Source of the DNA: Candidatus Omnitrophota bacterium
GTDB taxonomy: Bacteria; Omnitrophota; Gorgyraeia; 2-01-FULL-45-10
Reading direction: 5' to 3'
Assembly: GCA_016929115.1 (NCBI GenBank)
Contig: JAFGJL010000010.1
Location: 331 to 64,330 of the forward strand
Length of the DNA: 64,000 nt
Shown: positions 22,836 to 47,796 of the stretch, in pieces
How positions within the stretch are numbered: position 1 is the stretch's first letter
How the letters are laid out: every line of letters starts with the position of its first letter
Notes under the pieces: generated by a model
What the model saw: only the letters and a program-made list of their open reading frames with translations
Database searches by the model: none
What the model was told of the DNA's origin: nothing
Translations under genes and position numbers: made by a program

Positions 22836-24431
22836 TTATCTTGAAATAAAGTCCTTGACCGCTGATTTAACATCATGGTCCAATCTTTCCCGGAACCATT
22901 CGACAGCCACGGAAACACTCTCATCTTTATCGATCGCTGACGACCATCTGGAGACGCCTTTAATAAACCCGAATGATCCATGAACGCTCTCAGCCAATAA
23001 CGAAGCCTCTTTCCGGAATCCCGACCTTTTATACAGCCAGCCTAACATAAGCGCAAATCTTAAGAAGTGGAATTTGTTCGTATCCGGAGGAAAATCCTTA
23101 AGCCATTCGACATCGTCGGAAGATAATTTCATCTTCTTCGAATAAAGCATATCGATCCAAAGACTTTTAAGTATATTTTCTTTATACGCCCCTGAAACAA
23201 CTCTTTTTAATAGGGCCAGGTCTTCCCGGCCGGCCCTGCGCGTAACAAGCCCCTTGATAGCATCTTCCGCATCCGGATTGCTGTATTCTGCGGCAGATAA
23301 CCGCTCGATCACCCTGCGAGCTTTAGCTCTATACCCCATCCATGCCCAGAAGAGTGACAGGTCCGCCCACTTAATCCATTCATTACCCGCAGCTCCGGAA
23401 TCTATGACCTCTCTTATCTTGGATACGGCGTTCATAGCCGACTTTTCCGGCGGGATCGAAAGATGCGCTTCAATTAAACTGTCATAAATACCGACCCCTT
23501 TTTCATGGATGATGCTGATCACCCTGGGAACATCGGTTTCGTCCCTCACTATTATCTCGTCCAGCGAACCGTCGAATATCGTCCTGCGGCAGATCGGGAC
23601 AGGAACCACAGGTATCTTTCTCTGCATCGCGTCTATGATAACCTGGGATGTCCCCCTGTTGAAGAGGATATCAGTAACATCCAGGACCCTGTCTATGGGC
23701 GTCGGTCCGGGAGCCATCCTTGCGCGCGGGGCATAAGTTCTTAAGAATTTCATGGTCGTCGCCATGCTCTCAGCGGGATGCGGCTTGACCAGGAGCTCGT
23801 ATTCTTCCGTCAGCCCTTTTGACAAGATCTCAAGAATGCGTTTGCGCATGAAAGGCGTCTCTCCGTTAGGCGCAAGAAGGTCGAGGCTTAAGGTCGCAAC
23901 ACGCTTACTCTCGCTCAAACCAAATTCGCTCTTTGACGCTTTTTTTATAGTTTCACCCTTTTTATAACGGAATACGCCGCCTACCGTTTCTAGCGCGCTG
24001 GATGGCACCCCCAGTTTCATGAACTCGCTCTTCTCGTATTCCGAAGCAACAAAAAAATTATCAACAGGCAGGATATAATTATTCATAGCCGCCTGCGATA
24101 GCATCATCTGAGAAACCTCTTCCACAGCGATCACCGGTATCTTTCTCAAAAACGCCTCTTCCACCAGATTGCACTGCGCCGTGCGAAGCTGGGCGGTAAA
24201 AAGTATGACAGCCTTCACATCATCAAACGCCTCGCGAGATGGGCGCTGGAACAACCTGCCGCCAAACCATACCGCATCATCGCAGGACAGTTTCGCCGGA
24301 TCGGAAAACCATGAGAAATTCGGGTTGTATATCGCCCGGAAATGAAACTCCGGCATCAGCTTCTTGAATATCTGTATATTCCTGTCGTGAACAATTCCGA
24401 CCGGATTGAACAATATAACGTTTTTCTTCAT
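22836..24431 (-). CDS. Hypothetical GT-B-like protein with HP motif (TagF/KpsS/KpsC-type) plus helical C-terminal domain
   Basis: LLVKPHPAES followed by GTSQVIIDAMQRKIPVV, as in CDP-glycerol glycerophosphotransferase and capsule Kdo-transferase families. Confidence 0.45.
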   Translation of the reverse strand: MKKNVILFNPVGIVHDRNIQIFKKLMPEFHFRAIYNPNFSWFSDPAKLSCDDAVWFGGRLFQRPSREAFDDVKAVILFTAQLRTAQCNLVEEAFLRKIPVIAVEEVSQMMLSQAAMNNYILPVDNFFVASEYEKSEFMKLGVPSSALETVGGVFRYKKGETIKKASKSEFGLSESKRVATLSLDLLAPNGETPFMRKRILEILSKGLTEEYELLVKPHPAESMATTMKFLRTYAPRARMAPGPTPIDRVLDVTDILFNRGTSQVIIDAMQRKIPVVPVPICRRTIFDGSLDEIIVRDETDVPRVISIIHEKGVGIYDSLIEAHLSIPPEKSAMNAVSKIREVIDSGAAGNEWIKWADLSLFWAWMGYRAKARRVIERLSAAEYSNPDAEDAIKGLVTRRAGREDLALLKRVVSGAYKENILKSLWIDMLYSKKMKLSSDDVEWLKDFPPDTNKFHFLRFALMLGWLYKRSGFRKEASLLAESVHGSFGFIKGVSRWSSAIDKDESVSVAVEWFRERLDHDVKSAVKDFISR

Positions 24432-24434
24432 GAT

Positions 24435-25415
24435 CTAGTCATTCCATGAGGAAACGGTGTCACAGACTACCGTGCATTTTCCGCATACCGGATATTTTTC
24501 ATATTTGAAACCGCGAAAATCCTCGCGCACTTTCCTGTAGGCATCGCCATTCCATATTTCATGGATACTCTTATCCCTGACGTTCCCGATAACCTGATCC
24601 CCGTTATAATCCGGAGCGCATAAAACCACATCGCCATTTATGAGTATCACCATAACGCGCCATGGGAAAGTACAGATCCTCGCAATGTCGCCCATCTTGA
24701 TAAATGAGCGTCCGTCACCATAATTATATAGAGGAGCGATAAAAACCGAATCCCCCAATGATCTATCCAGAAAGGGGTTCACTAACTGAGTGAATTCTTT
24801 CGTCATGCACTTGTTCGTCGGGGTCCCTATATACTGTATGATGACTTTCGGGTTCTTCCTGCCGAGCTCTTTCCGCGTCTTGAAAAATACCGAGACCTTC
24901 GAAATGGTATCATTAAAATCAAGGCCGACCATCGTACTGTTATAGGTCTCCGGATCCGTACCGTAGAAGCTGAATTTCATCTCATCAAGCCCGGCCTCTA
25001 TGATCTCACGCGCTCTCGCCTCTGTGAATAACGAGCCGTTTGTTACAAAATAAGTATGGCGCATACCGCGATCTTTGGCGATCTTCACTCTTTTCGCAAG
25101 GTCTTTATCGAGAAGCGGCTCGCCAAAATTATGAAGGTGCAATCGTGTGACGTCATCGCGGTGCATCGAGACTTCTTTCATGATCTTCTCAAAAAGGCCT
25201 AAATCCATAACGCCTTGCGGCCTTGTGAGCTTCTCGCGCGGGCATATCGTGCAATGGATATTGCACCTGTTGGTATTTTCTATATAAACCTCGGGAGGAA
25301 AATCGGTGGGTTTCATAAATGGCCTTGCCGTTAAATACGAGCGTTTTTTTCTGCCATATAGAATAACGGGTTTCAATGCCCGCCACCGGTTCATATACCT
25401 GATCATGTTAACCAT
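24435..25415 (-). CDS. Radical SAM / SPASM-domain protein
   Basis: The CX3CX2C motif is CNIHCTIC, and C-terminal auxiliary-cluster cysteines are CGKCTVVC. Length is 326 aa. Confidence 0.7.
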   Translation of the reverse strand: MVNMIRYMNRWRALKPVILYGRKKRSYLTARPFMKPTDFPPEVYIENTNRCNIHCTICPREKLTRPQGVMDLGLFEKIMKEVSMHRDDVTRLHLHNFGEPLLDKDLAKRVKIAKDRGMRHTYFVTNGSLFTEARAREIIEAGLDEMKFSFYGTDPETYNSTMVGLDFNDTISKVSVFFKTRKELGRKNPKVIIQYIGTPTNKCMTKEFTQLVNPFLDRSLGDSVFIAPLYNYGDGRSFIKMGDIARICTFPWRVMVILINGDVVLCAPDYNGDQVIGNVRDKSIHEIWNGDAYRKVREDFRGFKYEKYPVCGKCTVVCDTVSSWND

Positions 25416-25424
25416 TTCAGCTCC

Positions 25425-26492
25425 TTAAAAAGTGAATCTGGACAGCCATCTCTTCGGTAAAAATTTAAAGGCGCGCAGCAGGCGTGTGTAAAAATAATGG
25501 CCATATAAAAATACGTCGAATTTCCTTGAGATAAGGCCTGATACGGAATTTTCCCTCCAAAGAATGAAGCGTATGTTACTGTCATATTCGCGCGGGAACT
25601 TTTCCGCCTTTTTGCCGGGTGAGCGCTTGAATATGCCTCTGACTTTCTCGTCGACAAATATGGGCTCGAAATTATCCATGATGCTCATGAGCGCGTTCCT
25701 CGAAAAGTGATACAGGTGAGCTATATGCAGGGAGCCGAGATAGCTCTTATCATGGCTTTTATAATAATTGGCGTTCTTTATGCTCGGGACCGAAAGGTAC
25801 AATATCCCGCCATCCTTAAGAAGGTTGAAAGCTGTCTGCACGGCCTCTTTCGGATCCACCAGGTGCTCAAGCACATGATTCATTATCAGGAAGTCAAATC
25901 GCTCGCCCGTATTTTTCACTTCGTCTATGCCGCCATGACGGAGATCCAGACCTCTGTTTATGCTGCGGCCGTACTCGAGATAACTTTTATTATAGTCGTA
26001 CCCCCGCACGTCCGCGCCATCCTCTAAAAAAGGCAGCAGTATGCCCCCCGCGGAACATCCGATCTCCATCACAGTCTTTCCCCTGAATCCCGATATATTG
26101 AGATGCCCTTTAATAAAATCTTTCATATAAACGCCGCCGGTGACCTGCGCACGGAAATGATCGGAGATATTTTCAGGCTCGGCATCCCAATAGAGGTCCT
26201 GGTACTCCCGGCTGTAAAATTCCTTAAGGACACCGCGGCTAGGTCGAGGATCGATCCGTAAAATACCGCATGACCTACATATGACCGTATTGATGGCAAA
26301 GCCGTAGCGGTCCGTTCCCGCAATAATGACATCGTCATCAGCGCCGCAAAGACAATGGCAATCCTCGAGCTTGTAATATCCCTTATCAAGCTTATCCTGA
26401 ATGGCGTCGCGCAGCGCGGTTTGGACGCTGTTCAACGGAACATGCGATCTACCGGAGAACATGAAACGGTTCGGCATTTTATAAATTGACAT
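25425..26492 (-). CDS. SAM-dependent methyltransferase with N-terminal Cys4 zinc-binding domain (sugar C-/O-methyltransferase-like)
   Basis: CHCLCG...CRSCG then MEIGCSAGG and LIMNHVLEHL. This is a paralog of 30955..31971. Confidence 0.7.
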   Translation of the reverse strand: MSIYKMPNRFMFSGRSHVPLNSVQTALRDAIQDKLDKGYYKLEDCHCLCGADDDVIIAGTDRYGFAINTVICRSCGILRIDPRPSRGVLKEFYSREYQDLYWDAEPENISDHFRAQVTGGVYMKDFIKGHLNISGFRGKTVMEIGCSAGGILLPFLEDGADVRGYDYNKSYLEYGRSINRGLDLRHGGIDEVKNTGERFDFLIMNHVLEHLVDPKEAVQTAFNLLKDGGILYLSVPSIKNANYYKSHDKSYLGSLHIAHLYHFSRNALMSIMDNFEPIFVDEKVRGIFKRSPGKKAEKFPREYDSNIRFILWRENSVSGLISRKFDVFLYGHYFYTRLLRAFKFLPKRWLSRFTF

Positions 26493-26506
26493 GATTGACC
26501 GTTTTG

Positions 26507-28303
26507 TTAGATATTTTGAGCGTTGATCTGCGTTTCGTGTAATTTTCTATATATACCCTGTTTATGGATCAGCTCCGAATGATTTCCGCTTTCAGCGATC
26601 CGTCCCTCATCCAAAACTATTATATTATCCGCATTATGTATCGTCGAAAGCCTGTGGGCTATTACGATCACTGTGCGGTTCTTCGACAGCTCGTCGAGCG
26701 CCCGCTGGATCTGCTTTTCTGTCCTGGTATCAAGATGGCTGGTGGCCTCATCAAGGATTAGTATCTCCGGATTCTGTATGATGGCCCTGGCTATCGACAT
26801 CCTCTGCCTCTGGCCGCCCGAGAGCTTAACGCCCCGCTCGCCGAAGATCGTATCATATCCCGCCGGAAGGCTCATGATATAATCATCTATGTCAGCGATC
26901 CTGGCAGCCGCCCTTATCTCGTTTTCCCGCACGCCTTGCCGGCCGTAGACTATATTATCCCGCGCCGACGCATTGAATATGAACACGTCCTGGGAGACGA
27001 CACCGATATTTTTTCTCCACGACCTGAGCTCAAATTCTTTCAGGTCGAACCCATCCATCGTGATCCTTCCTCCAGAGACGTCGTAGAACCTCAGGATGAG
27101 ATGCGCGATCGTCGTCTTGCCGGTCCCGGAAGAGCCGACTATGGCAGTGGTCTTATCTTTTGGCACGATGAACGACGCGCCGTCAAGGACCTTCTTATTG
27201 GCTTCATAGCTGAAACGGACATTTTCGAACCTTATCTCTCTCCTTAGCCCCTCAAAACGGCGTATGCCGTCCGCCATGGCGCTTTCGTCTATCCTTTTCA
27301 GGAAATCTTCGTAGGAATCAAACGCGCCGAGATAGCCGGCGGCCTCAGCCCTGCGGTCCTGGATGCCGCCGAAATCCGTCAACACGTTCTTCGAGACGTA
27401 AAGATAGGTGACGACATACGGCATCATCTTCATTACATCGATCGTTAGGACGCGTAACGCGACGATAAAGAGCCCAACGAATATACTTAAGAACGCTATC
27501 TGGCTGATAGGCATCATGAGTTCAGAGTGTTTCAGGTTCGAATAATTAAATCTATAGACATCATCCGAAGCATTCTTAAAGCGCTTCCGTTCGTAATCCT
27601 CGCCTGCGAATATGCGGATGACCCTTATGCCGTTTATCGCTTCGAGGACCGTAAAATTGAAACCGGCTATCGCTTTATTCACTGCGACGCCTATCTGCCG
27701 TATCCTTTTTACCACGAAAGACAGGGGGATGCGGATAACGATGAAGACCAGAAGGGCTATGAGCGTAAATTTCCATGACATAGCCGTAAGGATGACGAGA
27801 CCGACCGAAAGCCTCACGGCCATGGCGCAAATGCGCAAAACACAATTGATGAAGTTGCCTATCCTTGTCGTCTCATTGTACAAGCTGTTTATTATGAAAC
27901 CGCTCTTCGCCGAATCAAAAAAACCGATACCCGCAGACATCAGCCTGTCAAAAAGGTCAACCTGCAGATCCCTCGTCAGGAGAAAGCGCTGCTTGCTTAT
28001 CGCCACATTCCCTAAATAAAAGATCATGCTCCTCGCGATGAAAGAGGCCAGATAGAATATCAAGAGGATCGATATCACGTCGGGGCGGTCCCACCCGGCA
28101 AAAAAGGCACCCATCCTGTTTATTACAGGTATCCCCCGGAAGATGGTGTCGCTTCCCGATACCGCCTGCAGTATCGGGAAGAGCAGCCCTACATTGAAGA
28201 CTTCCAGGGCCGAGCCAAACACGATAAAAAGGAAGACAATAAGCGATAACGCCCAGTACTTTTTCAGGTAGAAAATCGTTTTCAGCATCTTATCGGTTAC
28301 CAT
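26507..28303 (-). CDS. ABC exporter, fused TMD-NBD (MsbA/PglK-like lipid-linked glycan flippase candidate)
   Basis: Walker A is GSSGTGKTT. The ABC signature is LSGGQRQRMSIARA. Walker B is ILILDEATSHLD. There is an N-terminal 6-TM domain. Confidence 0.85.
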   Translation of the reverse strand: MVTDKMLKTIFYLKKYWALSLIVFLFIVFGSALEVFNVGLLFPILQAVSGSDTIFRGIPVINRMGAFFAGWDRPDVISILLIFYLASFIARSMIFYLGNVAISKQRFLLTRDLQVDLFDRLMSAGIGFFDSAKSGFIINSLYNETTRIGNFINCVLRICAMAVRLSVGLVILTAMSWKFTLIALLVFIVIRIPLSFVVKRIRQIGVAVNKAIAGFNFTVLEAINGIRVIRIFAGEDYERKRFKNASDDVYRFNYSNLKHSELMMPISQIAFLSIFVGLFIVALRVLTIDVMKMMPYVVTYLYVSKNVLTDFGGIQDRRAEAAGYLGAFDSYEDFLKRIDESAMADGIRRFEGLRREIRFENVRFSYEANKKVLDGASFIVPKDKTTAIVGSSGTGKTTIAHLILRFYDVSGGRITMDGFDLKEFELRSWRKNIGVVSQDVFIFNASARDNIVYGRQGVRENEIRAAARIADIDDYIMSLPAGYDTIFGERGVKLSGGQRQRMSIARAIIQNPEILILDEATSHLDTRTEKQIQRALDELSKNRTVIVIAHRLSTIHNADNIIVLDEGRIAESGNHSELIHKQGIYRKLHETQINAQNI

Positions 28304-29799
28304 ATTTTCACCAGTTTGGCCAATTTCTTGCGTACGCTGAACGGCAAGAGCGGCAGGACAGCATCAGCTATGTTGTAAAGGAACATATAAGGAAGATAGA
28401 GCGCCGGCCTGTTCTTCCTGTAATAATCCAGCCTCGTCTCTTTCCTTATCATGAACGCCCATCGTTTCCACATCCTGTCAGGTGTTTTAGTAAGGTTGAT
28501 GAACGGCCTGCCTCCGTGCTCGCAGACCAGATCAAGATATTTTTCAAGGTCATCGATGAGCTTGTTCTCTTCCACATAATTCCATATAGGCGCTCCGGGC
28601 AGCGGCATAAGATAGTTCAGGGAATACTGATATCCGCCGACATCCTTCAGGAACCGGACCGTCTCCCGGATCGTATCTTTCGTCTCGGAAGGAGAGCCGA
28701 TAACTATCTGAACGACGCTCAGTATGCCTACCTTTTTGGTTGTAAGCACTGTTATATCCCTGTTCTTACTGCTCGATATGCCCTTTCTGTACTCCTTCAG
28801 TATGGTGTCTGACCCGGACTCCTGCCCATAGGAGATCTCGATACATCCGGTATCTTTCATACGGCGTAATATTTTTTCATCCATCTTATCGAGCCTTGCG
28901 CCCGCAACGATGTAGAAGATGTCGATCTTTTCCCTTTCTAACGCATCACAAAATTCATAGACCCATTCCTGACGGGAATTGAAAAGTTCATCGGCAAATG
29001 AAAAACCTTCGATCCCGTAGGTTTCCATGAGAAACTTGATCAGGCGTATCAGATAGCCGACGCTATGCTGCCTTATACCGTCCATGTGCCTGTAGCAGAA
29101 GCTGCATCTATGCGTACAGCCCCTGGCGGTAACGACCGGGAAATAATGCGTCCTGTTGCCTATGCGCGCCTTGATGTCGTTGTACAACGGATTTATCTCA
29201 AACAACATTTTATATGAAGCATAAAGGGTCGACACCGGCTCAAGATACCTCTTCACATCAACAAGATGGTAAGCGGGAAAAGGGATCGAGTCCAGGTCTT
29301 TTATCTGCTCGGGATTCTTATTCCTGGTTATTATCCCGTCCGATCGATGTGAAATGCCCGGAGTGCTTTTCCAGTCCCCGCCGGCCGCGACTTTATCAAG
29401 AAAATACGGCAAGGACGTTTCAACCTCACCGTGAAAAACCGCGTCTATCCCGGCATTTTCCAGAAGAAGGCGGGTGATAGAGGCAAGCGGCCCGCCGGCT
29501 ATCTGTAATATGCCGGGATAATTGGCCTTCACGAATTGAGAGAGCTTCTTTGTCCTGCCATACGAAGTAGATACGCCCCCGTACCCGATTATCGATGGTT
29601 TGAAAGATCCTATCAGCTCTGATATCTTGCTGAAATCTCCCGCATCGAATTTTTCTATATCTGAAGGGTCTAGATACGGATCATAGATAGCTGCCTTGTG
29701 CCCCTCTCTTTCGACGGCCGATCCGGCATACAACAATCCCTGCGGAAGCATGCTTCCGCCCCCTTTTCTCGACGGGCTATTTATCAAAAGGACGTTCAT
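28297..29799 (-). CDS. Cobalamin-binding (class B) radical SAM enzyme
   Basis: The B12-binding N-terminus is NVLLINSP...PQGLLYAGSAV. The CX3CX2C motif is TARGCTHRCSFC. The start is set at ATG 29799, with a verified ATGA overlap. The track ORF extends to 29835. Confidence 0.8.
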   Translation of the reverse strand: MNVLLINSPSRKGGGSMLPQGLLYAGSAVEREGHKAAIYDPYLDPSDIEKFDAGDFSKISELIGSFKPSIIGYGGVSTSYGRTKKLSQFVKANYPGILQIAGGPLASITRLLLENAGIDAVFHGEVETSLPYFLDKVAAGGDWKSTPGISHRSDGIITRNKNPEQIKDLDSIPFPAYHLVDVKRYLEPVSTLYASYKMLFEINPLYNDIKARIGNRTHYFPVVTARGCTHRCSFCYRHMDGIRQHSVGYLIRLIKFLMETYGIEGFSFADELFNSRQEWVYEFCDALEREKIDIFYIVAGARLDKMDEKILRRMKDTGCIEISYGQESGSDTILKEYRKGISSSKNRDITVLTTKKVGILSVVQIVIGSPSETKDTIRETVRFLKDVGGYQYSLNYLMPLPGAPIWNYVEENKLIDDLEKYLDLVCEHGGRPFINLTKTPDRMWKRWAFMIRKETRLDYYRKNRPALYLPYMFLYNIADAVLPLLPFSVRKKLAKLVKIW

Positions 29800-30977
29800 A
29801 CGTGCACCTTGATAGCATCCGAGACTATCTGCCAAAAAGGCTTGTCTTCCGAGACAGACCTTTTAATATATGATTCGATATATTCCCTATATGCCGTTTC
29901 ATCTATGGACAGCTCCCCGGCCAGATCGATATCGAGCGCTTCATCCACATTTACCGCCCGTTTATTGAACTGAGAAGCTATATCATCGATGACTCTCCCC
30001 TGCGCGCCCGCCTTCAACTCATTCGTCGTAACGCATATCAGCGGCTTTTTAAATAATATGGCATAGTTGATAGATGTGGTCGAATGCGCTATCACAAAAC
30101 TCGAACGCTTTACAAGCTCAACGGTCTTTCCCTTTATGACGGGCCTCTTCCCGAAGTAATCCGGAAGCTCCTCGTATTTTGAACGTGGATGCGCCGCAAT
30201 GACGACATCAAGACCGCTCTTCTTCTCCAGGAGGCTGAAGAACTTCCTCAGAGGCCCGTAATACTTGTCGGGCGTCGCGAACGGGGCATGTTTCACATAG
30301 AGGTAATCCCGGTGGAAGCAGATATCCTCATCCAGAAACAGGGCGAATGGTTTTTCGGCAACGGAGGCCTTTTCCTTTTCTTTCAGATAGATATCGTAAT
30401 CCAGCGCATGGGCCCACACTATCTTCGTATCGCCGTTCAGAGGATAGTATATATACTGGTTCGCGCTTATTTTTCCTCCTGCCAATAATAAGGCCGCGGG
30501 CCGGACACCGAAATACGCAAATGGCAGCCGGAGAAATATGGCGTTCGATATCTTGTCCGCAGTGAGCCGCCTGAGTCTGCGTAGCGCATCCGGTACCGTC
30601 GATCTGTTATTGCCCTTAGGCAGGGCATTTGCGGCGAACATGGCATACTCTATCCCTTTTCTGGAAATCGCCCTGAACATGGGATAAGAGTTCAGATCGT
30701 AAAAAACGAATGAGACCACAAATGACTTTTCCCGGATAGCTGAAACGGCCTTCAGGACTTCCTTTTTCGCACGAAAGAGGCGGTAACCATCGCAGTTGAT
30801 CGGGCTTTCCCCTGTGATCTTGGCATAGATATCCGGATGCAGCGCCGGAGTAAGGTCCCACACCTCTACTGCGAAACCGCTATCCTTCATGGTATCGACA
30901 CCGAACCTCTCGTAGTCCCTTTTGCAGAAAGGCGCTTCTACCATGTATATTATTTTAGATATTTTGGCCATACCCAT
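29796..30977 (-). CDS. Hypothetical GT-B-like protein with HP motif (TagF/KpsS-type fold)
   Basis: VVIAAHPRSKY...SFVIAHSTTSINYAILFKKPLI. There is no other recognisable domain. Confidence 0.4.
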   Translation of the reverse strand: MGMAKISKIIYMVEAPFCKRDYERFGVDTMKDSGFAVEVWDLTPALHPDIYAKITGESPINCDGYRLFRAKKEVLKAVSAIREKSFVVSFVFYDLNSYPMFRAISRKGIEYAMFAANALPKGNNRSTVPDALRRLRRLTADKISNAIFLRLPFAYFGVRPAALLLAGGKISANQYIYYPLNGDTKIVWAHALDYDIYLKEKEKASVAEKPFALFLDEDICFHRDYLYVKHAPFATPDKYYGPLRKFFSLLEKKSGLDVVIAAHPRSKYEELPDYFGKRPVIKGKTVELVKRSSFVIAHSTTSINYAILFKKPLICVTTNELKAGAQGRVIDDIASQFNKRAVNVDEALDIDLAGELSIDETAYREYIESYIKRSVSEDKPFWQIVSDAIKVHV

Positions 30978-31971
30978 CCGCCTGCTTATATAGACCCAGT
31001 CCGGACAAGACCGTCTTCACGCGGTATTTCAGCCGGATAAATCCCAGATGAGAACGCATCTTTAAATAATGCCCCTTGAGCCCGCCTCTCATTACAGGCG
31101 CCCCTTTCTTGAATATGCCGAACATATGCACCTTTTGTGCCGGGCCCTTCATTATGAGCCGCAGGCCGGCCTTTGAACAAAAATACTCCAATGTCCAAGG
31201 CGTGAAATAATAAGTGTGCGCGCCCTGCAGTTGCGAAATGCCGAAATTCATGATATTGGGGACGCCTATATATATGACGGACCCGTCGTGCATATGCTTT
31301 GTTATCTTTTTCAGCAAGCCGACGGGGTCCGGCAGGTGCTCCAGAACATGGTTTATGATGACTACGTCATATACGCCCCTGATATCGTTCGCATCGCCCT
31401 GAGCCATGTCTACGCCGTGCTTGCGCCCCAGTTCCACAAGGCTCGGGCTATACTCTATTCCGCGCGCTATCGCCCCCGCCTTTATGAAAGGCAGGAGATT
31501 CCATCCTCCGCCGGCGCCGAGCTCGATCACCGTTACCCCCGGCGTTATTTTCCTTGCCTTATCAACCGCTTCAAAGATATGGATCACGGAGCTGTCTTCG
31601 TATTTGCGTTTCTCGAATGCCTCGAGATAGTCATAACCTTCGTAACATCTCCTGTAAAGGTCCGATGAATAGAAATCGCGGGTTTGGGCTTCGGTCATCC
31701 TCGGATTGGACCGGATGAGGCCGCAATCGGTACACATGACCGTCTGCTGGAGTATGGCGTACCTGTCGATCGACGCTATCAGTACAAAATCCCGGCAACC
31801 GCACAGGCAAGGCGCTTCTTCAAACGCCACCCTGTTGTTTGTAATATCTTCGTTAAACTTCCCGATAAGCCGCAACTGGTCATCCGTCGTTGGCCCGACC
31901 GGTTTAGCCGCGGACGTGAACGGTTCGAACGGGAATAATATAGCGCCTGTTTTCATTTTAATCCCACTCAA
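30955..31971 (-). CDS. SAM-dependent methyltransferase with N-terminal Cys4 zinc-binding domain (paralog)
   Basis: CLCGC...CTDCG then IELGAGGG and VIINHVLEHL. Confidence 0.7.
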   Translation of the reverse strand: MSGIKMKTGAILFPFEPFTSAAKPVGPTTDDQLRLIGKFNEDITNNRVAFEEAPCLCGCRDFVLIASIDRYAILQQTVMCTDCGLIRSNPRMTEAQTRDFYSSDLYRRCYEGYDYLEAFEKRKYEDSSVIHIFEAVDKARKITPGVTVIELGAGGGWNLLPFIKAGAIARGIEYSPSLVELGRKHGVDMAQGDANDIRGVYDVVIINHVLEHLPDPVGLLKKITKHMHDGSVIYIGVPNIMNFGISQLQGAHTYYFTPWTLEYFCSKAGLRLIMKGPAQKVHMFGIFKKGAPVMRGGLKGHYLKMRSHLGFIRLKYRVKTVLSGLGLYKQADGYGQNI

Positions 31972-32839
31972 AATCTTCTTCGCGAAAATATCTCAGCTTA
32001 TATTTCACCTTCTCCTCTTCGGAGAATAAGACCTTCTCTCCTGTCCCGAGAAGGTCTTTTACGGCCCTTGCATCCCTCACTACGAGTTCCAATCCTCTTT
32101 TTTCCAAAGAAGCTGATTGGTCTGACCCGTACATGCTCCTGTCAAGAGTTATATGCCTTTCCAGGGCCACGGCGCCCAACGCAGCCGCAACCGTAGTCGG
32201 GCCTACGCCGTTCTCGTGGCCGCTGTAACCCACCGGGCAGTCATATCTCTTCCTGAAGACATCGATCATCTTTACGTTGCACCATTCGTCCGGGCACGGA
32301 TAGATCGAGACGCAGTGCATAAGGGTGAACGGGCAGTCATGCTTTCTGAAAAGGGCGACCACCCTGTCCACCTCATCCAACTTGCTCATGCCCGTCGAGA
32401 TAAAGGTGTGTTTGCCTTCCCTGGCTATCATCTCAACCAGGCCCTTGTGGGTAAGCATAGCCGACGCTATTTTGTTGAACGGCAGGTCGTACTGCCTCAG
32501 GAACTCCTGGCTCTTTTCATCCCATGCGGAAGCGAACCAGTGGATACCGATCTCTTTGCAATGCCTGTCAATGACATCGTATCCTGGCTTGCCCAGCTCA
32601 AGGGCCTCCTTCTGGGCCCTTTGCGTAGTCCCCCAGGGGCTCTGTCTCGGGGAATCGAGCACCTCTTTAGGGTAGACTATTTCTATAGTCCTCTTCTGGA
32701 ACTTTACAGCATCAGCCCCGCATTCCTTCGCCATATCAATCAACTTCTTTGCGATACCGACATCACCGTTGTGATTGATACCTACCTCGGCTATTATGAA
32801 CGGCAAGCTCTCCTCATTCTTATAAGGATCTATGCGCAT
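31958..32839 (-). CDS. NeuB-family (N-acetylneuraminate/pseudaminate/legionaminate synthase-type) PEP-condensing synthase, lacking C-terminal SAF domain
   Basis: IIAEVGINHNGD...KFQKR...ISTGMS...GYSGHE...ERHITLD. At 293 aa it is only the TIM-barrel domain. Confidence 0.85.
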   Translation of the reverse strand: MRIDPYKNEESLPFIIAEVGINHNGDVGIAKKLIDMAKECGADAVKFQKRTIEIVYPKEVLDSPRQSPWGTTQRAQKEALELGKPGYDVIDRHCKEIGIHWFASAWDEKSQEFLRQYDLPFNKIASAMLTHKGLVEMIAREGKHTFISTGMSKLDEVDRVVALFRKHDCPFTLMHCVSIYPCPDEWCNVKMIDVFRKRYDCPVGYSGHENGVGPTTVAAALGAVALERHITLDRSMYGSDQSASLEKRGLELVVRDARAVKDLLGTGEKVLFSEEEKVKYKLRYFREEDFEWD

Positions 32840-34757
32840 ACGATACCTCCTTTTTGCTCTCCGCCAATCCGTTCTCTTCCCTGTACTTCTTCACTGAAAT
32901 ATCCAGCGAATGCTTTGCATCGTTCGTTCTTGCCAGCTCGCACATAAAGGTTTGAATAAATCCGCCTATCCTTTCAGGCGCCAGGAGATCATCGAAATAA
33001 TTGAACTTCTGTCTCCATTCGGTAAAATCGCCTATCGTCCTGTCCCCTCCAGCCGCTTTAACGATCGCCGCCTTAAGGTCATCGAGTGAAAGATATACGA
33101 TCTTCTGCCCTGCGTCTGTCTGGAATGTGCGGTGGCGTATCCCGCCGCAGTCCCAGTGTATCGCGCGGCAACCATGGACAGCGGAAATGATGCCGGCGGA
33201 ATTAAGCCCGAAACATACCGAAAGGTCGGCTTGCCCGGATGCCGCAAGCGGATTATTTTGACGGTCCAGCATGACAAACCGCTTCTCTTTCGCAAGAGCG
33301 TCCATTCTCGAAACGATCTTTTCCCCTTCCGGCAACGACCGCAGGCGCGCCCTGTCACTATTCTTGCTCTTGACTATAGCGCCCCACCGCGGGTTATCTT
33401 CGATGAGGCCCAGTATCTCCAGATAGAACCTTGCCAGCGTAGCGGTCGAATACTGGATATTGTACCCTGCGGAGTTGTCGAATATCGCTATGACGAAATC
33501 CAGCCCGTCGCTAAAAGCCGGCTTCGGATCGAGGCCTCCCTCAGGCCGCATCATCCATAATCCGGAAGGCAGTATATTCCGGGGGGCATTGCCTATCTTT
33601 TCCATATATTCCCGGATCTCCTCCCCCCAAGTGAAATAGACATGGTGCGGAAAGATGTGGGTGGGAAGCGACAGGAAGTAGTAGTTAGACCAGTTATACC
33701 CTAACATGATGCCGCCGGCCGCCTCAACGGCCTTTGCCTGGACTTCCTGCCTCCAGAAAGCTTCCTGATGCTGGATCAGCACCTTCACCTGGAACCGCCT
33801 GAAGATCTTCTCATACAACAATAGATACAATTCATAATCAAAATAGAACAGCCGGAGCCACCGAGGCGATTTTTTAGTGAAGCGGCGGCGCCTTGGAAAC
33901 AGCCTGTTTAACTCGCTAAGCCTTATACCGCTCAGAGATATCATCGGGAAGAAATGAAGGTCGATCCATTTACATCCTCTCTTCCCGGCCATCTCGGCAA
34001 ACTTCAGCCGCAAGCCATCGTCGTTCCTGTCGAGATAATACACTACGTCGAATGCCTCTGCCTTGACGTGGCCGCGCCAGAAAAGAAAATCGACCATGCC
34101 CACATTGGCATATTCCACCCAGACAGCAGGCCTTGGCCGATCTATGTTCCCCCGCGCCTTTGCGGGGATAAACCTCGCCGCCAGAATAGCTAAAAAACAA
34201 AGAGCCGGTTTCGTAAAGAAACCCGCTGTTTCCATCACTCCGCATTCTTTTACGTCGAAATCCTTTTTCTCGTCGAACAGGAATATAACGGAGTTAAGAG
34301 GGTGCCTTTGTACATAGAGCACATGCCTGATATCTTTTGCGGTATTTTCCTGGCATTTTACCTTCGCCTCGACCATTGTCATGAACATAAAACGGTGGAG
34401 CAGGAAGCGGGCAAGGTAGGACTTAACCATCTTCCTGAACGAAGCGGGCTCTTCAGGTAGATATTGCATACAAAATTTTTCCAGGCATGTATCCGCCCGC
34501 ATCTGAGCCCGTTGGCTTAACGCAAATCCCTCGCCCTCCTTAAGATTCATCGATAGTCCGGCCTTATGAAAATTACGACATAGCCCGATCTTCCCGGCAA
34601 ACGGCATAAGGCGGGCTGCCGCACAGGATATCCTGTGCTCATCATACAGTATTTCGGCTCCGGAAAAGAAGCTTACGAACGACAAAGACAGCAGCTGTGC
34701 CAAACCCATCTTCTCAACCCATATTTTTTTTACACATCTTCTGCTTTCGCTATTCAT
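32820..34757 (-). CDS. Large hypothetical protein (645 aa), possible novel glycosyltransferase
   Basis: No signature motifs recognised. The C-terminal third has a GT-B-like pattern (VIAIFDNSAGYN...CFGLNSAGIISAVHG). The true start is probably downstream of the first ATG. Confidence 0.35.
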   Translation of the reverse strand: MNSESRRCVKKIWVEKMGLAQLLSLSFVSFFSGAEILYDEHRISCAAARLMPFAGKIGLCRNFHKAGLSMNLKEGEGFALSQRAQMRADTCLEKFCMQYLPEEPASFRKMVKSYLARFLLHRFMFMTMVEAKVKCQENTAKDIRHVLYVQRHPLNSVIFLFDEKKDFDVKECGVMETAGFFTKPALCFLAILAARFIPAKARGNIDRPRPAVWVEYANVGMVDFLFWRGHVKAEAFDVVYYLDRNDDGLRLKFAEMAGKRGCKWIDLHFFPMISLSGIRLSELNRLFPRRRRFTKKSPRWLRLFYFDYELYLLLYEKIFRRFQVKVLIQHQEAFWRQEVQAKAVEAAGGIMLGYNWSNYYFLSLPTHIFPHHVYFTWGEEIREYMEKIGNAPRNILPSGLWMMRPEGGLDPKPAFSDGLDFVIAIFDNSAGYNIQYSTATLARFYLEILGLIEDNPRWGAIVKSKNSDRARLRSLPEGEKIVSRMDALAKEKRFVMLDRQNNPLAASGQADLSVCFGLNSAGIISAVHGCRAIHWDCGGIRHRTFQTDAGQKIVYLSLDDLKAAIVKAAGGDRTIGDFTEWRQKFNYFDDLLAPERIGGFIQTFMCELARTNDAKHSLDISVKKYREENGLAESKKEVSYAHRSL

Positions 34758-34768: not shown

Positions 34769-36163
34769 TTAAGCGTGCCGGAAACCTCGAAAAGCGGCAT
34801 CCTTTTCCAGATAAAGCGCTTTTGACTGCCGTATCGACTCGGACAGCTTTTTGCCGAAATAGTTCTCAAGGAGCCTTACGTTAGCCTCTAAAAGGCACCT
34901 GTGGAATTCATCGTCTTCCATATCCGTGAAGTTCACGCTCAAAAGGTCGGAATTGACATGCTTATGCTCATAAAAATCCTCGCAGTCCTTAAGCAACCCT
35001 TTTGTGATAGCGTGATAATACAAGGGAGACCCGGGATAAGGCGTAACAGGCCGTATGGTCCTGATCTGGGACCCGTCGTCATACTTCAAAAGGAACTCCA
35101 CGCCTTTTTCCAGAGTCTCTTTGTCCTCGCCGATGTTCCCGAATATGATATTGAGGCCCGGGCTTATGCCGACCTCAAGCGTGTTCTCGATCCCCTTTAT
35201 CACCTGCTCGGTCGTCAGGGCCTTGTTCATGTTCTTGAGTATGCGGTCATCCATGGCCTCTATACCGTAGTTGACAAATACGCACCCTGCCTTCTTCATC
35301 AGCTCAAGCACCTTCTTCGTGGCAAAGTTGAGCCTGCCGTTGCAATACCAGTTTATGCCGAGCCCCGCACGAAGAAAATCCTCGCACAGCTCCGTCGTCC
35401 TCGCCTCCGAGCACATGAAAAGATCGTCGCAGAAAGATATGTAGGTGACGTTATACCTGTCCTTGAGCGTCTTTATCTCGTCTATTATGCTCTTGGCTGT
35501 CCTTGGGCGGAACCCCTTGTCCATCCTGTAGCAGAAATTGCACTTATAAGGGCAGCCCCGGCCCGTTATTATAGGAAGACCTTTCTGGTTGTGTTTGATA
35601 TTGGGAAAACGGAACAGGGAGTAATATTCCATGTTAAAGAGATCCCATGCCGGATACGGTATCGAATCGAGGTCCTTTATCAGCGGCCGCGATGGCGTCT
35701 GGATGAACTTTCCGCTCTCTTTGTCTATATAGGCTATGCCCTTAACATCTTTCCACGGAGAATCATTTTCGATGGCCTTGCATAACTCCACGATAGTCTT
35801 TTCGCCCTCGCCTGTCACGACAGCGTCCGCTTCCGTCTTCTTCAGGAAATACTGCGGCTCAGGCGACGGGCCGTGCCCGCCGATGACATAGACCGGCCTG
35901 TTCTTTGACTTATTTACGGCCTCGGATATCTTGAGCAATTTCCTGTATTGGTAATATCCGCCCGAAACGCCCATGCCCACCAGGTCAAACCGGTGTTCAT
36001 CAAGATAAGCGGTGATATGCCCCTCCGGAAGATGGCCCGCATCCTGCTGATAGACGGTCACATCGTGCCCCGCCTCCCTCAGCGCGGCCGCGACGTATCC
36101 CAATCCCAGAGGGAACCAGTGCAGGAACGAATCGTTGTCATAGGCTATCAAGAGTATCTTCAT
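34769..36163 (-). CDS. Cobalamin-binding (class B) radical SAM enzyme
   Basis: The B12-binding N-terminus is KILLIAY...PLGLGYVAAAL. The CX3CX2C motif is GRGCPYKCNFC. Confidence 0.8.
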   Translation of the reverse strand: MKILLIAYDNDSFLHWFPLGLGYVAAALREAGHDVTVYQQDAGHLPEGHITAYLDEHRFDLVGMGVSGGYYQYRKLLKISEAVNKSKNRPVYVIGGHGPSPEPQYFLKKTEADAVVTGEGEKTIVELCKAIENDSPWKDVKGIAYIDKESGKFIQTPSRPLIKDLDSIPYPAWDLFNMEYYSLFRFPNIKHNQKGLPIITGRGCPYKCNFCYRMDKGFRPRTAKSIIDEIKTLKDRYNVTYISFCDDLFMCSEARTTELCEDFLRAGLGINWYCNGRLNFATKKVLELMKKAGCVFVNYGIEAMDDRILKNMNKALTTEQVIKGIENTLEVGISPGLNIIFGNIGEDKETLEKGVEFLLKYDDGSQIRTIRPVTPYPGSPLYYHAITKGLLKDCEDFYEHKHVNSDLLSVNFTDMEDDEFHRCLLEANVRLLENYFGKKLSESIRQSKALYLEKDAAFRGFRHA

Positions 36164-38449: not shown

Positions 38450-39307
38450 CTATTTTTTCAGTTTCTTCCTTATATCTTTCTCGCTCGGCATGATCCGTTT
38501 CTCGCCGTCTCCCATGATCGCGTCTATATCCCTTATTCTTTTCCTGAGCATATCCATCGCCGCAACCTCAAGGCTCGCGGCGTGGTCGGTCCCCCACATG
38601 CCGTGGTTCAGCGTTATGTGGCGCTCGATGATCTTCGCCCCCAGCACCGACGCGTAGACGGTCGGCTCAACGTTATACTCGTGGCCGCTGTATCCGATGA
38701 CGCAGCCGTAACGTTTTTTGAGGGTCTTTACGCAGTTGATGTTCAGCTCTTCTTTCGGTGTCGGATAGCTGGAATTCGTGTGCATGAGGGCAAAATCCGA
38801 CGCGTACCTTTTCAATACATCCACGAGGTCATCCACTTCCTTCATCGAGCTCATCCCGGTGGACGCTATTATCGGCACCCCGGTCTTGGCGGCGGTCTCT
38901 ATCAGTTTCAAGTCCGATATCTTGGCGGAAGGTATCTTGATGAACGGCATTTTATAGCCCAGGCTGAACCGGAGGCTGTCCATGTCCCAAACGGACGCGG
39001 TCCAGTCGATCGGCTTCTCCCTGCAGTACTTATCTATGTAATCGTATTCTTCCCTGCCGAATTCTATCTTCTTCTTGTATTCAAGATATGTCATCCTGCC
39101 CCAAGGGGTATCCCTCAAGACCTTCTTCTGCTTTTCAGGGATGCATTTATCCGGATTCCTCTTCTGGAATTTGGCGCAGTTCCAATGGCATGCGAAGACC
39201 GCGTCGATCAGCCTTTTGGCGATATTCAGGTCGCCGTTATGATTTATCCCTATTTCCCCTATAAGGTAAATACCGTCGATATCCTTGAAACGCATCATAT
39301 CGCTCAC
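38450..39307 (-). CDS. NeuB-family PEP-condensing synthase, SAF-less (second paralog)
   Basis: LIGEIGINHNGD...KFQKR...ASTGMS...GYSGHE...ERHITLN. Length is 285 aa. Confidence 0.85.
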   Translation of the reverse strand: MSDMMRFKDIDGIYLIGEIGINHNGDLNIAKRLIDAVFACHWNCAKFQKRNPDKCIPEKQKKVLRDTPWGRMTYLEYKKKIEFGREEYDYIDKYCREKPIDWTASVWDMDSLRFSLGYKMPFIKIPSAKISDLKLIETAAKTGVPIIASTGMSSMKEVDDLVDVLKRYASDFALMHTNSSYPTPKEELNINCVKTLKKRYGCVIGYSGHEYNVEPTVYASVLGAKIIERHITLNHGMWGTDHAASLEVAAMDMLRKRIRDIDAIMGDGEKRIMPSEKDIRKKLKK

Positions 39308-39312
39308 CTCTT

Positions 39313-42663: not shown

Positions 42664-42670
42664 CTCCCCT

Positions 42671-43222: not shown

Positions 43223-43673
43223 AATATAAAAGCTCCCTTAAAACGCCCTCGCCGCCGGTTGTATTCAGGACGATCTTTGCTACAGCCTTTGCTTCCTTGC
43301 AGGCGTTAGCGGGACATACGGGATGCCCCACGATCCGCATCGCTTCAAGATCGTTAAGGTCGTTACCCACATAGACCACGTCCTTCAGGGGTATATTCGT
43401 GTCGCGGCAATATATTTTCAAGGCCTCGCACTTATCCGGCACATCCTGCAATACGGGTATATCGAGCTTTTTCGCTCTTTCAGCGACCACCTTGTTTCTT
43501 TCTGTGGAGAGGATCATCTGGGGTATTCCGCGGCGCTTAAAGACGCCCACCGCCAGCCCGTCAGAACGGTTGACGGTGACGCTCTCCAGGCCGTCCTCCC
43601 TCAGGATGATCTTATTATCCGTCATCACTCCGTCAAAATCGTATACTATGAGTTTTATGTTCCTCACCAGCAT
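43182..43673 (-). CDS. KdsC-family HAD phosphatase (ulosonic acid-phosphate phosphatase)
   Basis: LIVYDFDGVMTDN (DxDGV) and VYVGNDLNDLEAM. A length of 163 aa is typical of KdsC and of KDN-9-P phosphatases. Confidence 0.8.
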   Translation of the reverse strand: MLVRNIKLIVYDFDGVMTDNKIILREDGLESVTVNRSDGLAVGVFKRRGIPQMILSTERNKVVAERAKKLDIPVLQDVPDKCEALKIYCRDTNIPLKDVVYVGNDLNDLEAMRIVGHPVCPANACKEAKAVAKIVLNTTGGEGVLRELLYYVKTDEDRKRNRR

Positions 43674-45875: not shown

Positions 45876-45920
45876 CTTTACACCTCTTTCTTTGATCTTA
45901 TCGTTGCCGAATATGCTGAA

Positions 45921-47009
45921 CTAACGACTCCTGGACATTTCCGGGACGTTCATCTCTCTTGTCGTAGGGACATAGCGCTTAGCTTGCTCAATATCCTTCC
46001 CGGATGACGTCAGGGTATACTTGACGGATAAGTATAGGGCGGAATCCATGACCTTTTCGCCCACACGTATCTCCTTTAAAATCAGGGCCCTGCCTCCGGC
46101 GATAACCCTGACATACCGGTCGTCCAATATAGTAACGATCTTGCCGTTACAAAAAGGATGGAATTCCTGCGAGACCGATGTGTCGATATAGCTGTCCAGG
46201 ATATGCACCTTTTGGCCGTTGTAATAGGTATAGGCTCCCGGATAAGGGACGCTGAACGCCCTTATGAACCGTTCGACCGAGTTGATATCCCAATCCCAGT
46301 TTATGATGCCGTTCTGCTCCGTATAAAGGCGCGGATAATAAAAGCTTTTGTTGTGGTCCTGGGGCCTGGCGGGAACGGGATCCTCCTTTAAAAGAATGTC
46401 GAGAAACCCGCTCAGGAGCTTCTTGCAATTGTCCACTTCCGCGATCAGGTAATCGACCGGCTTGGGGTGATCCTTTTTTATGGCGACGCGGCCCTGGAGG
46501 ATCACGTCTCCGCTGTCTATGCCCTCGTCGAGATAATGGACGGTGTCCCCTACCGTGTTGATGCCGTTCAGGATGCGCCAGGTATTCAACGCCCCTCCCC
46601 TTTCATCCGGCAGATACGAGTCATGGATATTGAAGATCTGCCCCTTGAAATAGTCGATTATCATCTTCTTTATGATATTGCGGCAGCTCGTCGAAAAGCC
46701 GATATTGCATTTATGCCCGGACAGGATCTCGATAGCTTCGTCGCAATTGACGTTCTCCATCTTGTAGATCCTGACCAACCCACGGCTGGCCAGGGACTCC
46801 ATGTCCCCGCAAAGCCCGTAAGGGGTCAGGAGCTTTTTATCCCTCATGTATTCTTCGTCCGGAGAGACGATCGCGACAGGCGGCGGGAATCCGCGCGCGT
46901 GCAATTCCTTGATCAGATGGTCTGTATAGACGATCCTGCCGAAAATGGCGAATTGAAAGTCCTTGGGCTGTTTCACGTTTGCGTCCTTTGGGTTAAAGGC
47001 TCCACACAC
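45921..47009 (-). CDS. Formyltransferase-family protein (sugar N-formyl/acyl transferase, Fmt N+C domains)
   Basis: NIHDSYLPDERGGA matches the HxSLLPxxRG formyltransferase motif. There is a C-terminal Fmt_C-like domain. Confidence 0.7.
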   Translation of the reverse strand: MCGAFNPKDANVKQPKDFQFAIFGRIVYTDHLIKELHARGFPPPVAIVSPDEEYMRDKKLLTPYGLCGDMESLASRGLVRIYKMENVNCDEAIEILSGHKCNIGFSTSCRNIIKKMIIDYFKGQIFNIHDSYLPDERGGALNTWRILNGINTVGDTVHYLDEGIDSGDVILQGRVAIKKDHPKPVDYLIAEVDNCKKLLSGFLDILLKEDPVPARPQDHNKSFYYPRLYTEQNGIINWDWDINSVERFIRAFSVPYPGAYTYYNGQKVHILDSYIDTSVSQEFHPFCNGKIVTILDDRYVRVIAGGRALILKEIRVGEKVMDSALYLSVKYTLTSSGKDIEQAKRYVPTTREMNVPEMSRSR

Positions 47010-47796
47010 TGTTGGAGCCGACCGGTTCTTTCAAACGGGCCTCTCTTTTCAGGTTCTTGTAATTTGAGCAAAGATGATCATAGACGGGATGTTTCTGGTT
47101 CGCCAGAAAGAAGTTCAGCTTCCTGAAATCGTCCGGTCCGTCGACTTCGCCCGTGTCGGGAGTCATGAAGGCCAGCATCCTCGGTCCGTAACACGATCTA
47201 TAGCGCTTCAGGGTGTGCGTTTTGATGATATCGACATACCCGTTACCGAAATATGCGGGCGGGAAAGCCTGTCTGGGAAGCGTAAAATATTCCGGTCTGG
47301 GATCGAAGGGACACAGGCCCTGCAGATAACCGTCATGCATGCCGAACATCTTCCCTGGCGGCTCTTCGATCTCATGCACGGAAACGAGGCTGGTCGACTC
47401 CGGCCTGCTTTTTATGTACGAGACGGATTCGCTGAGCAGCGCCGGGTCACGAAGCGGGGTCGTGGGGCGTATCTGGACCCAGTATTCAGGCGCATAGTTC
47501 TCGTTCTGCTCAAACCAGCCCAGGGCATGCTCGATGACTTCCTTATCCGTTGAATTGTCCCTGGCGAATTCGGCCGGCCTCATAAAAGGCACTTCGGCAC
47601 CAAAAAGTTTCGCGATCTCCGCGATCTCTTCGCTATCCGTTGAAATGATGGTCCTTTCTATATTCTTGGCCAGCTTGCATGCAACCACTGAATACGCTAT
47701 TAAAGGAAAGCCACCGAGATCGCGTATATTCTTTTTGGGCACTCCCTTTGAGCCGCCGCGGGCTTGTATCAACGCGATCACATCGCTTTTTTTCAT
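46993..47796 (-). CDS. Acylneuraminate cytidylyltransferase family (third CMP-sugar synthetase)
   Basis: ALIQARGGSKGVPKKNIRDLGGFPLIAYSV. Length is 267 aa. Confidence 0.8.
   Translation of the reverse strand: MKKSDVIALIQARGGSKGVPKKNIRDLGGFPLIAYSVVACKLAKNIERTIISTDSEEIAEIAKLFGAEVPFMRPAEFARDNSTDKEVIEHALGWFEQNENYAPEYWVQIRPTTPLRDPALLSESVSYIKSRPESTSLVSVHEIEEPPGKMFGMHDGYLQGLCPFDPRPEYFTLPRQAFPPAYFGNGYVDIIKTHTLKRYRSCYGPRMLAFMTPDTGEVDGPDDFRKLNFFLANQKHPVYDHLCSNYKNLKREARLKEPVGSNSVWSL

Follow-up and report, generated by a model that had tools for sequence, protein, structure and literature searches.

The DNA considered here is a 64-kb window (the whole analysed stretch of contig JAFGJL010000010.1 of a Candidatus Omnitrophota bacterium), whose minus strand carries a glycan locus about 60 kb long. 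This locus encloses three orphan open reading frames (ORFs), labelled A, B and C and likewise located on the minus strand, which are candidates for transferases of cytidine monophosphate (CMP)-activated ulosonic acids. Database proteins identical to A (JW919_00680) and to B (JW919_00705) belong to a Candidatus Omnitrophica metagenome-assembled genome. All three ORFs were found at the positions stated in the original prediction. It described A and B as lacking any standard glycosyltransferase (GT) signature, which holds true: none of the three reached a Pfam family at E<=0.01, and single-sequence searches against PDB sequences returned nothing. Pairwise hhalign comparison of the three family profiles recovered no relationship either, i.e., they are not paralogs at a detectable level. 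The ORFs, their motifs and their neighbours are listed in Table 1.

Table 1. The three orphan ORFs, their conserved motifs and selected neighbouring genes, numbered by position in the 64-kb window
Feature	Position	Strand	Basis
ORF A, 531 aa, predicted GT-B enzyme with helical (TPR-like) tail, orphan family	22836..24431	-	ORF and profiles
A aa 1-345, GT-B catalytic region	23397..24431	-	profile match to UgtP
A aa 346-531, C-terminal helical domain, probably TPR-like	22839..23396	-	inferred from relatives
A K216-P217-H218-P219, HP motif	23775..23786	-	conservation and alignment
A E104-E105 ("IPVIAxEEV"), acidic pair	24117..24122	-	conservation
A H15, early in N-terminal domain	24387..24389	-	conservation
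A N258-R-G-T-S-Q263, putative donor-binding loop of C-terminal domain	23643..23660	-	conservation and alignment
ORF B, 393 aa, predicted single-module GT-B enzyme, orphan family, bacteria and archaea	29796..30977	-	ORF and model
B H263-P264, HP motif	30186..30191	-	conservation and model
B H190-A-L-D193-Y194-D195, His/Asp cluster of N-terminal domain	30393..30410	-	conservation
B H298-S-T-T-S302, Ser/Thr-rich putative donor loop	30072..30086	-	conservation and alignment
ORF C, 645 aa, N-terminal accessory region and GT-B core, putative peripheral PFTS_polysacc member	32820..34757	-	ORF and model
C K463-S464-K465, in place of HP motif	33363..33371	-	conservation and model
C H152-P153, only HP of C, non-canonical site	34299..34304	-	model
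C C515-F-G-L-N-S-A-G522, putative donor loop of C-terminal domain	33192..33215	-	conservation
Radical SAM/SPASM enzyme, upstream partner of A	24435..25415	-	family match
MsbA/HepA/PglK-like ABC exporter, belongs to conserved A cassette	26507..28303	-	family match
B12-binding radical SAM enzyme directly downstream of B	28297..29835	-	family match
NeuB-family synthase, short form without SAF domain, between C and B	31958..32839	-	family match
B12-binding radical SAM enzyme directly upstream of C	34769..36163	-	family match
Second NeuB-family synthase, short, without SAF domain	38450..39307	-	family match
CTP_transf_3, further copy	39313-39987		family match
CTP_transf_3 fused to methyltransferase	41320-42663		family match
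CTP_transf_3 cytidylyltransferase, presumed donor activation	46993..47796	-	family match

Family A comprises 43 close homologs, mostly from Omnitrophota, and 41 sequences form its conservation alignment. An exhaustive profile search (E<=1e-3) brought the family to 577 cluster representatives, many of them 600-1100 aa long and sharing only the N-terminal ~350 residues. The family profile matched the GT28 enzyme UgtP (PDB 9wde) at E 1.2e-5. A full-length profile of distant members was swamped by proteins with tetratricopeptide repeats (TPR) and was therefore trimmed to the GT-B region; the trimmed superfamily profile found UgtP at 1.6e-12, the TagF-like polymerase Cps3D (8qoy) at 2.2e-7 and the epimerase-family protein CapG at 1.2e-3. 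Among 55 distant relatives, 20 have TPR repeats after the GT-B region and eight match Pfam Glyphos_transf (best E 2.7e-7). One close homolog shows a marginal TPR_6 match, and the C-terminal tail of A itself is probably TPR-like.

The translations do contain the strings on which the original prediction was built, LLVKPHPAES in A (aa 213-222) and VVIAAHPRSKY in B (aa 258-268). HP dipeptides occur at about the frequency expected by chance (one in A, two in B, one in C); their conservation is not a matter of chance. In family A, K216, H218 and P219 are invariant (41/41) and remain near-invariant in the 55 relatives at ~20% identity, and of the eight histidines only H15 (98%) and H218 (100%) are conserved. 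In the trimmed profile, the "ivKlHP" segment aligns on the His of "IFRGH" in Cps3D and on the HP of "STHPR" in CapG. R259, G260 and S262 of the downstream loop are invariant; this loop (NRGTSQ) aligns on "ITD-YSS" of Cps3D, which is the TagF-type "D-YSS" loop, and on "ITKPGGIT" of UgtP. In the N-terminal domain, E105 is invariant and lies 113 residues before the HP motif. The stretch E104-E105-V106 contains no Gly, and we regard the acidic pair as a candidate counterpart, with the Gly replaced, of the D/E-D/E-G motif of bacterial sialyltransferases.

Known families touch A below their cut-offs. Matches to polysialyltransferases, Glyphos_transf and Capsule_synth all fall on aa ~195-280, the HP segment. 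GT38 (PF07388) is found in 7 of the 41 members, at best with 18.4 bits against a threshold of 23.3 and over aa ~203-255 only, and marginal Capsule_synth matches cover the HP segment in five of the 41. Against Glyphos_transf (PF04464) the close family scores 11-12 bits where the cut-off is 22.1. TIGR04326 (O_ant_LIC13510) matches A with E 4.5e-5 over aa 126-276 only, the 22 bits being far from the cut-off of 250.

Profiles of families B and C had no significant match in PDB, and structures were predicted for these two, which lack a sequence link to any structure. The two Rossmann-like alpha/beta domains with an inter-domain cleft that characterise the GT-B superfamily are present, and Foldseek comparison of the B and C models with PDB did not discriminate more finely than "GT-B". 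In the B model, H263-P264 directly follows strand E257-262 (DVVIAA), i.e., beta-2 of the C-terminal Rossmann domain; the conserved strand precedes the motif here, not follows it as the original prediction had it. A261, H263 and P264 are invariant in all 52 family B sequences, and in 39 B sequences from distant phyla P264 is invariant and H263 at least 90% conserved. The segment "IAAHPrs" aligns weakly on "STHPRS" of CapG (E 0.021, a marginal value obtained with a broadened family B profile). H190, D193, Y194 and D195 are invariant as well and are kept at ~30% identity, and H298 and S300 are near-invariant. The loop H298-S302 stands in register, with weak E-values, with "NRGTSQ" of A, "CFGLNSAG" of C and "SFSSTT" of a further family, D. 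No D/E-D/E-G motif was found in the N-domain of B. The commonest weak match in family B is GT52 (PF07922; 4/52, best E 0.0087); Epimerase_2 is matched by two of the 52 members, both below threshold. The TagF-type placement of the motif claimed for the ORFs is borne out for A and B by the Cps3D and CapG alignments and the position at the end of beta-2, the site at which TagF-like enzymes, bacterial sialyltransferases and 2-epimerases have the His that contacts the nucleotide phosphate; the proposed link to KpsC/KpsS and WbbB is not.

ORF C had been thought possibly to share this pattern, which we do not find. At the corresponding site, where strand E458-463 ends (beta-2 of the C-terminal domain in the C model), stand K463-S-K465, with both lysines conserved in 37/37 family C sequences. 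The sole HP of the protein, H152-P153, comes after strand E143-150 of the N-terminal accessory region, outside the catalytic core, and is conserved at 73/78%. The putative donor loop lies within the stretch that matches TIGR04417, and its N519, S520, A521 and G522 are conserved at 76-95% (28-35 of 37). TIGR04417 itself matches aa 420-563 with E 5.6e-8 and 32.1 bits against a cut-off of 100. A precomputed PF27878 match exists on the protein identical to C and on 19 of 40 other family C proteins; by locus (L-numbers denote homolog loci outside the window) it is strong in L009 and weak in L010 and L102, and L011 and L103 show none. We tentatively place C at the fringe of the curated, function-unassigned PFTS_polysacc (PF27878/TIGR04417) family. 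A literature search found no paper on PFTS, TIGR04417, TIGR04326 or LIC13510 in the searched library.

Family D is a fourth family without a Pfam match, ~630 aa long, which accompanies A in other genomes. Its alignment with A, B and C is weak and in register around the HP and Ser-loop segments; D has R-P (KFRPS) where A and B have H-P (KPHP in A), followed by its SFSSTT loop. That this ~630-aa gene of the A cassettes is family C was ruled out by hidden Markov models (HMMs), which separate D as a family of its own. A 600-aa Pfam-less protein in one B locus (L005 13077-14879) is a distant relative of C (family C HMM E 5.7e-7).

The setting of the three ORFs agrees with the premise of the original prediction, namely a locus that makes CMP-activated keto-deoxy acids without a recognisable sialyltransferase: two NeuB and three CTP_transf_3 genes are present, and among the window ORFs scanned there is no match to GT38, GT52, GT80 or PF05855, to Maf or to Capsule_synth. 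For family B, a survey of species-representative genomes gave at least 115 relatives, from which 80 loci were kept. Hosts are Omnitrophota, Syntrophales and other Deltaproteobacteria, Elusimicrobia, Nitrospirae, Planctomycetes, cyanobacteria, Firmicutes and several archaeal orders, and the carriers include cultured methanogens, a Syntrophomonas and a cyanobacterium. In the 54 loci flanked by 4 kb or more on each side, HMMs built from genes of this analysis detected a CTP_transf_3 synthetase in 51 (94%), NeuB in 47 (87%), a DegT aminotransferase in 36, a canonical NeuC-type Epimerase_2 in 32 (59%), a B12-binding radical SAM gene within 10 kb in 29 and family C proper in five. The CMP synthetase gene is the direct upstream neighbour of B in 12 of 70 loci. 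In a Methanoperedens locus, a complete pathway of the legionaminic acid (Leg) type and the CMP synthetase gene are directly followed by B. B is specific to clusters for nonulosonic acids (NulO) and does not stand for the NeuC step.

The latter point bears on the possibility that B and/or C are 2-epimerases or hydrolases akin to NeuC/LegG or PseG, which would free the hexosamine precursor for NeuB. The alignment of AAHPRS in B on STHPRS of CapG and the weak Epimerase_2 matches of two B members are in line with it, as is the absence of Epimerase_2, PseG and DegT genes among the window ORFs scanned. Yet no member reaches the Epimerase_2 threshold, and B typically comes after the CMP synthetase gene, which acts in the last biosynthetic step. 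In addition, the window pathway suggests a sugar-phosphate route in which no NDP-sugar hydrolase would be needed. A substitution for the NeuC missing from the window was ruled out for both proteins, as canonical Epimerase_2 coexists elsewhere with B (in the 32 loci above, that of Methanoperedens with its complete Leg-type pathway among them) and with C (in three of five independent loci, L009, L011 and L103). Overall we consider an epimerase function of B or C quite improbable.

Family C lies in NeuB/CTP_transf_3 clusters in all five independent loci, and in L009 an ABC exporter directly follows the C homolog. Family A is found differently. In the loci examined it always belongs to a cassette that begins with CTP_transf_3, in many cases fused to GT2, and continues with D, an ABC exporter, radical SAM/SPASM, A and a B12-binding radical SAM gene. 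The radical SAM/SPASM gene immediately precedes A in the window and in 10 of the 11 other loci, and the exporter is adjacent in L006-8, L092 and L095-100. D is not present in the window; the exporter gene comes there after C, NeuB, a methyltransferase gene, B and a B12-binding radical SAM gene. B and C occur together with genes of the NeuB and NeuA types, very strongly so in the case of B. Outside the window A is accompanied by CTP_transf_3, with no NeuB found in the flanks (<=10 kb) of its cassettes.

For A in particular, a TagF-like phosphotransferase has to be considered, which would take a cytidine diphosphate (CDP)-activated donor and transfer polyol- or sugar-phosphate, yielding a teichoic-acid-like phosphodiester polymer exported by the ABC system as in TagF-like group 2 capsules. 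Cps3D and Glyphos_transf are the best links of the A superfamily to a catalytic family, A has two conserved histidines as TagF-like enzymes do, and its cassette includes the exporter. Capsule polymerases of the TagF-like type typically carry TPR domains (PMC5974469), which are also seen in the 20 relatives mentioned above. The lack of NeuB near A in other genomes is likewise compatible with a CDP-linked donor. Against this, the cytidylyltransferases are of the CTP_transf_3 type, i.e., of the CMP-ulosonate synthetase family, and in the window ORFs scanned and in the cassettes only this type was found, with no TagD or TarI/IspD match listed. No close-family A, B or C protein reaches the Glyphos_transf cut-off. 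In A, the conserved His of the N-domain is found close to the N-terminus, whereas in TagF/TarL the base (H444/H300) sits on a loop next to the GT-B donor site (residues 299-308 of TarL). For B, moreover, the frequent company of NeuB argues in the same direction. We regard this alternative as unlikely.

A B12-binding radical SAM gene lies beside each of the orphan GT-B genes, downstream of B and of the A homologs and upstream of C, and this recurs across phyla. The pairing with B is repeated in L001-3 and L005, and that with C in L009, L010, L102 and L103. It suggests that C-methylation or another radical tailoring is coupled to transfer. The same pairing would also fit proteins that are not transferases at all, but inactive GT-B scaffolds or binders of CMP-sugars presenting the substrate to the B12-radical SAM/SPASM enzymes, a possibility to which the missing HP His of C and the precedent of SpsB discussed below lend some weight. 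The putative active-site residues, which are polar or charged, are on the other hand strictly conserved over a wide phylogeny in all three families, as would be expected of enzymes, and we know of no GT-B protein that acts solely as a radical SAM carrier. We hold the non-transferase explanation to be very improbable. A peptide-modifying reading of the ABC exporter and radical SAM/SPASM pair, similar to systems for ribosomally synthesised and post-translationally modified peptides, was rejected, as a precursor gene would not fit into the gaps of 3-15 nt and the surrounding genes are all glycan genes.

On balance, and with a modest lean in its favour, we interpret A, B and C as CMP-ulosonate-dependent glycosyltransferases of three new GT-B families unrelated in sequence. 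We infer the transferase function from fold, motif and context, and the donor, acceptor and catalytic roles proposed below would be compatible with the folds, motif positions, conservation and gene linkage described above. The mechanism class is known; the families are new, and A and B are without a curated model. The putative catalytic His of the motif is conserved in A (H218) and B (H263) and lacking in C.

Several observations weigh against this interpretation. C has no HP His at the motif site, and the putative equivalence of the His in B is based on topology and the marginal alignment to CapG. Since NeuB was not found near A outside the window, A may use a donor other than a nonulosonic acid, and the link of A to these acids is weaker than that to CMP-type activation. 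Ordinary GT2, GT4 and GT9 enzymes are numerous in the window and could in principle carry out the transfer. Finally, SpsB of B. subtilis, which has a TagB domain with DEG and HP motifs and is encoded beside legionaminic-acid genes, is dispensable for Leg transfer (PMC7439481); motif and context can therefore mislead.

If A, B and C are indeed ulosonate transferases, they would act in the cytoplasm: a crude membrane-segment screen found no run of at least 17 hydrophobic or small residues in A, B or C. The donor would be a CMP-activated nonulosonic or related ulosonic acid supplied by the neighbouring NeuB and CTP_transf_3 enzymes, and the acceptor a growing glycan on the cytoplasmic face of the membrane, probably lipid-linked or possibly attached to protein. 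The MsbA/PglK-like ABC exporter, whose gene lies in the same group, would then carry the finished glycan out. The His of the HP motif in A and B may contact the donor phosphate and aid the departure of CMP, by analogy with three known enzymes. In NmB-polyST and PmST1, H278 and H311 of the HP motif bind CMP-Neu5Ac and contact the CMP phosphate (PMC2169525), and H433 of TarL touches the alpha-phosphate of the donor and has been proposed to protonate the leaving CMP (PMC10901376). The base that activates the acceptor hydroxyl could be H15 and/or E105 in A and one of H190, D193 and D195 in B. C would share the fold, with its invariant Lys-Ser-Lys in the place of HP. The TPR-like tail of A may help the enzyme to oligomerise or bring it into contact with the acceptor or exporter.

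The remainder of the locus has several unusual traits. Besides the genes in Table 1, the window encodes class-III aminotransferases, a formyltransferase, a HAD phosphatase, several methyltransferases and further glycan enzymes (GT2, GT4, GT9, GT-C, a WecA-like initiating transferase and an O-antigen-ligase-like protein). The ulosonic-acid pathway at 38450-49994 is non-canonical. Both NeuB of the window lack the SAF domain, and Epimerase_2, PseG and DegT were not found among the ORFs scanned. Present instead are two class-III aminotransferases, a formyltransferase, an SDR, a HAD phosphatase, a xylose-isomerase-like TIM-barrel protein and the three CTP_transf_3 genes, of which one is fused to a methyltransferase. 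The combination of short NeuB, HAD phosphatase and class-III aminotransferases suggests the sugar-phosphate route mentioned above. Six B12-binding radical SAM genes (799-2238, 7133-8464, 28297-29835, 34769-36163, 36160-37746 and 50848-52284) and two radical SAM/SPASM genes (24435-25415 and 39974-41320) make the density of radical SAM genes within one 64-kb glycan locus exceptional. At the upstream end, a 577-aa ORF (61630-63363) and small ORFs at 63339-63985 are likewise without a Pfam family at E<=0.01. Related loci contain fusions of CTP_transf_3 with radical SAM/SPASM (569 aa, L011 15539-17248), of NeuB with CTP_transf_3 (597 aa, L004 11328-13121) and of GT2 with CTP_transf_3 (446 aa, L006 2995-4335). 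A PF27859 (LIC12162) gene is found in a family C locus (L103 18487-19917), and the "surface carbohydrate" families named after Leptospira (LIC13510/TIGR04326, LIC12162, PFTS) appear to cluster in such loci.

Only tentatively, and with doubt about the combination as a whole, do we go further and propose that B is an unrecognised NulO transferase family in the sense of CAZy, spread over many bacterial phyla and over methanogenic and other archaea, while the A cassette is a new assembly line dependent on an ABC exporter. In this line A would be joined by CTP_transf_3, the ~630-aa "D" or "C", the MsbA-like exporter, radical SAM/SPASM and B12-binding radical SAM enzymes, and would build an acidic glycan or polymer tailored by radical SAM chemistry (e.g., C-methylated), with the HP position varied among H-P, R-P and S-K.

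Nonulosonic acids are widespread on microbial surfaces, and the enzymes attaching them are known for a few pathogens only; knowledge of these enzymes has been called scarce (PMC5420450). Family B offers a concrete and widely distributed candidate, which almost always lies beside CMP-NulO synthesis genes. If the interpretation is correct, B adds a new transferase family, opens the surface glycans of archaea and candidate phyla to study and supplies new biocatalysts for sialic-acid-like sugars. The association of GT-B proteins with radical SAM enzymes and an ABC exporter further points to unexplored chemistry of glycan tailoring. The transfer of nonulosonic acids in uncultured bacteria and archaea thereby becomes a directly testable question, chiefly through B. 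To a glycobiologist the finding would not be surprising, as the mechanism class is already known.

Comparison with known systems confirms the GT-B fold that the original prediction implied and does not support some of the relatives it named. KpsC/KpsS (GT107, PF05159) and WbbB (GT99) resemble the ORFs in the class of their HP-type motif, and similarity does not extend to the family level; the family thresholds of TagF, GT38 and GT52 are not reached either. PFTS_polysacc is a putative relative of C only, and C scores far below the NCBIfam cut-off. With the sialyltransferases of GT38, GT52 and GT80 (Freiberger 2007), A (41/41) and B (52/52), though not C, share an HP motif in the C-terminal domain, but the sequence matches stay below the family cut-offs and are confined to the HP segment. 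Bacterial sialyltransferases have the D/E-D/E-G motif ~125 residues before HP; A has its acidic pair 113 residues before HP and without the Gly, and none was found in the N-domain of B. The nearest structures here are TagF-like enzymes and epimerases and not sialyltransferases. UDP-GlcNAc 2-epimerases/NeuC (PF02350) are equal-best structural neighbours with an HP(R) motif at the same position; the proteins differ from them in scoring below the PF02350 threshold and in coexisting, in the case of B and C, with canonical copies.

Closer in function are the Pse/Leg transferases of Tannerella forsythia, TagB-like GT-B proteins with HP motifs (PMC5420450). Tanf_01245 and TFUB4_00887 (Tomek 2017; PMC5420450) lie, like B, beside CMP-NulO genes and are required for the terminal NulO; as far as a comparison by description allows, they differ in that the TagB domain model identifies them, and PF04464 identifies none of A, B and C. 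FlmG, a TPR and GT-B protein, transfers Pse (PMC7591256). This Caulobacter crescentus enzyme, compared by architecture only, parallels the A superfamily in its modular combination of TPR with GT-B and uses a nonulosonic acid donor; its TPR is N-terminal, and the surroundings of A showed no flagellin or flagellar genes. A further known system is TagF/TarL (PF04464). A, B and C remain below its threshold and lie in a context of CMP-ulosonate instead of CDP-polyol, the catalytic W-H of the TarL N-domain is not evident here, and C has Lys-Ser-Lys for the His. A conserved N-domain His is present in A (H15) and B (H190), as a candidate counterpart of TagF H444/TarL H300. The His of the TagF C-domain (TarL H433), in turn, is found in A by alignment with Cps3D and in B by topology, though not in C (K-S-K). 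With TagF-like Cps3D, the HP His and the following Ser-rich loop of the A superfamily coincide; TagF/TarL enzymes share the GT-B fold and are the best or near-best structural match of the B and C models, and the leaving group CMP (predicted for A, B and C), the TPR domains and the ABC-exporter context are shared.

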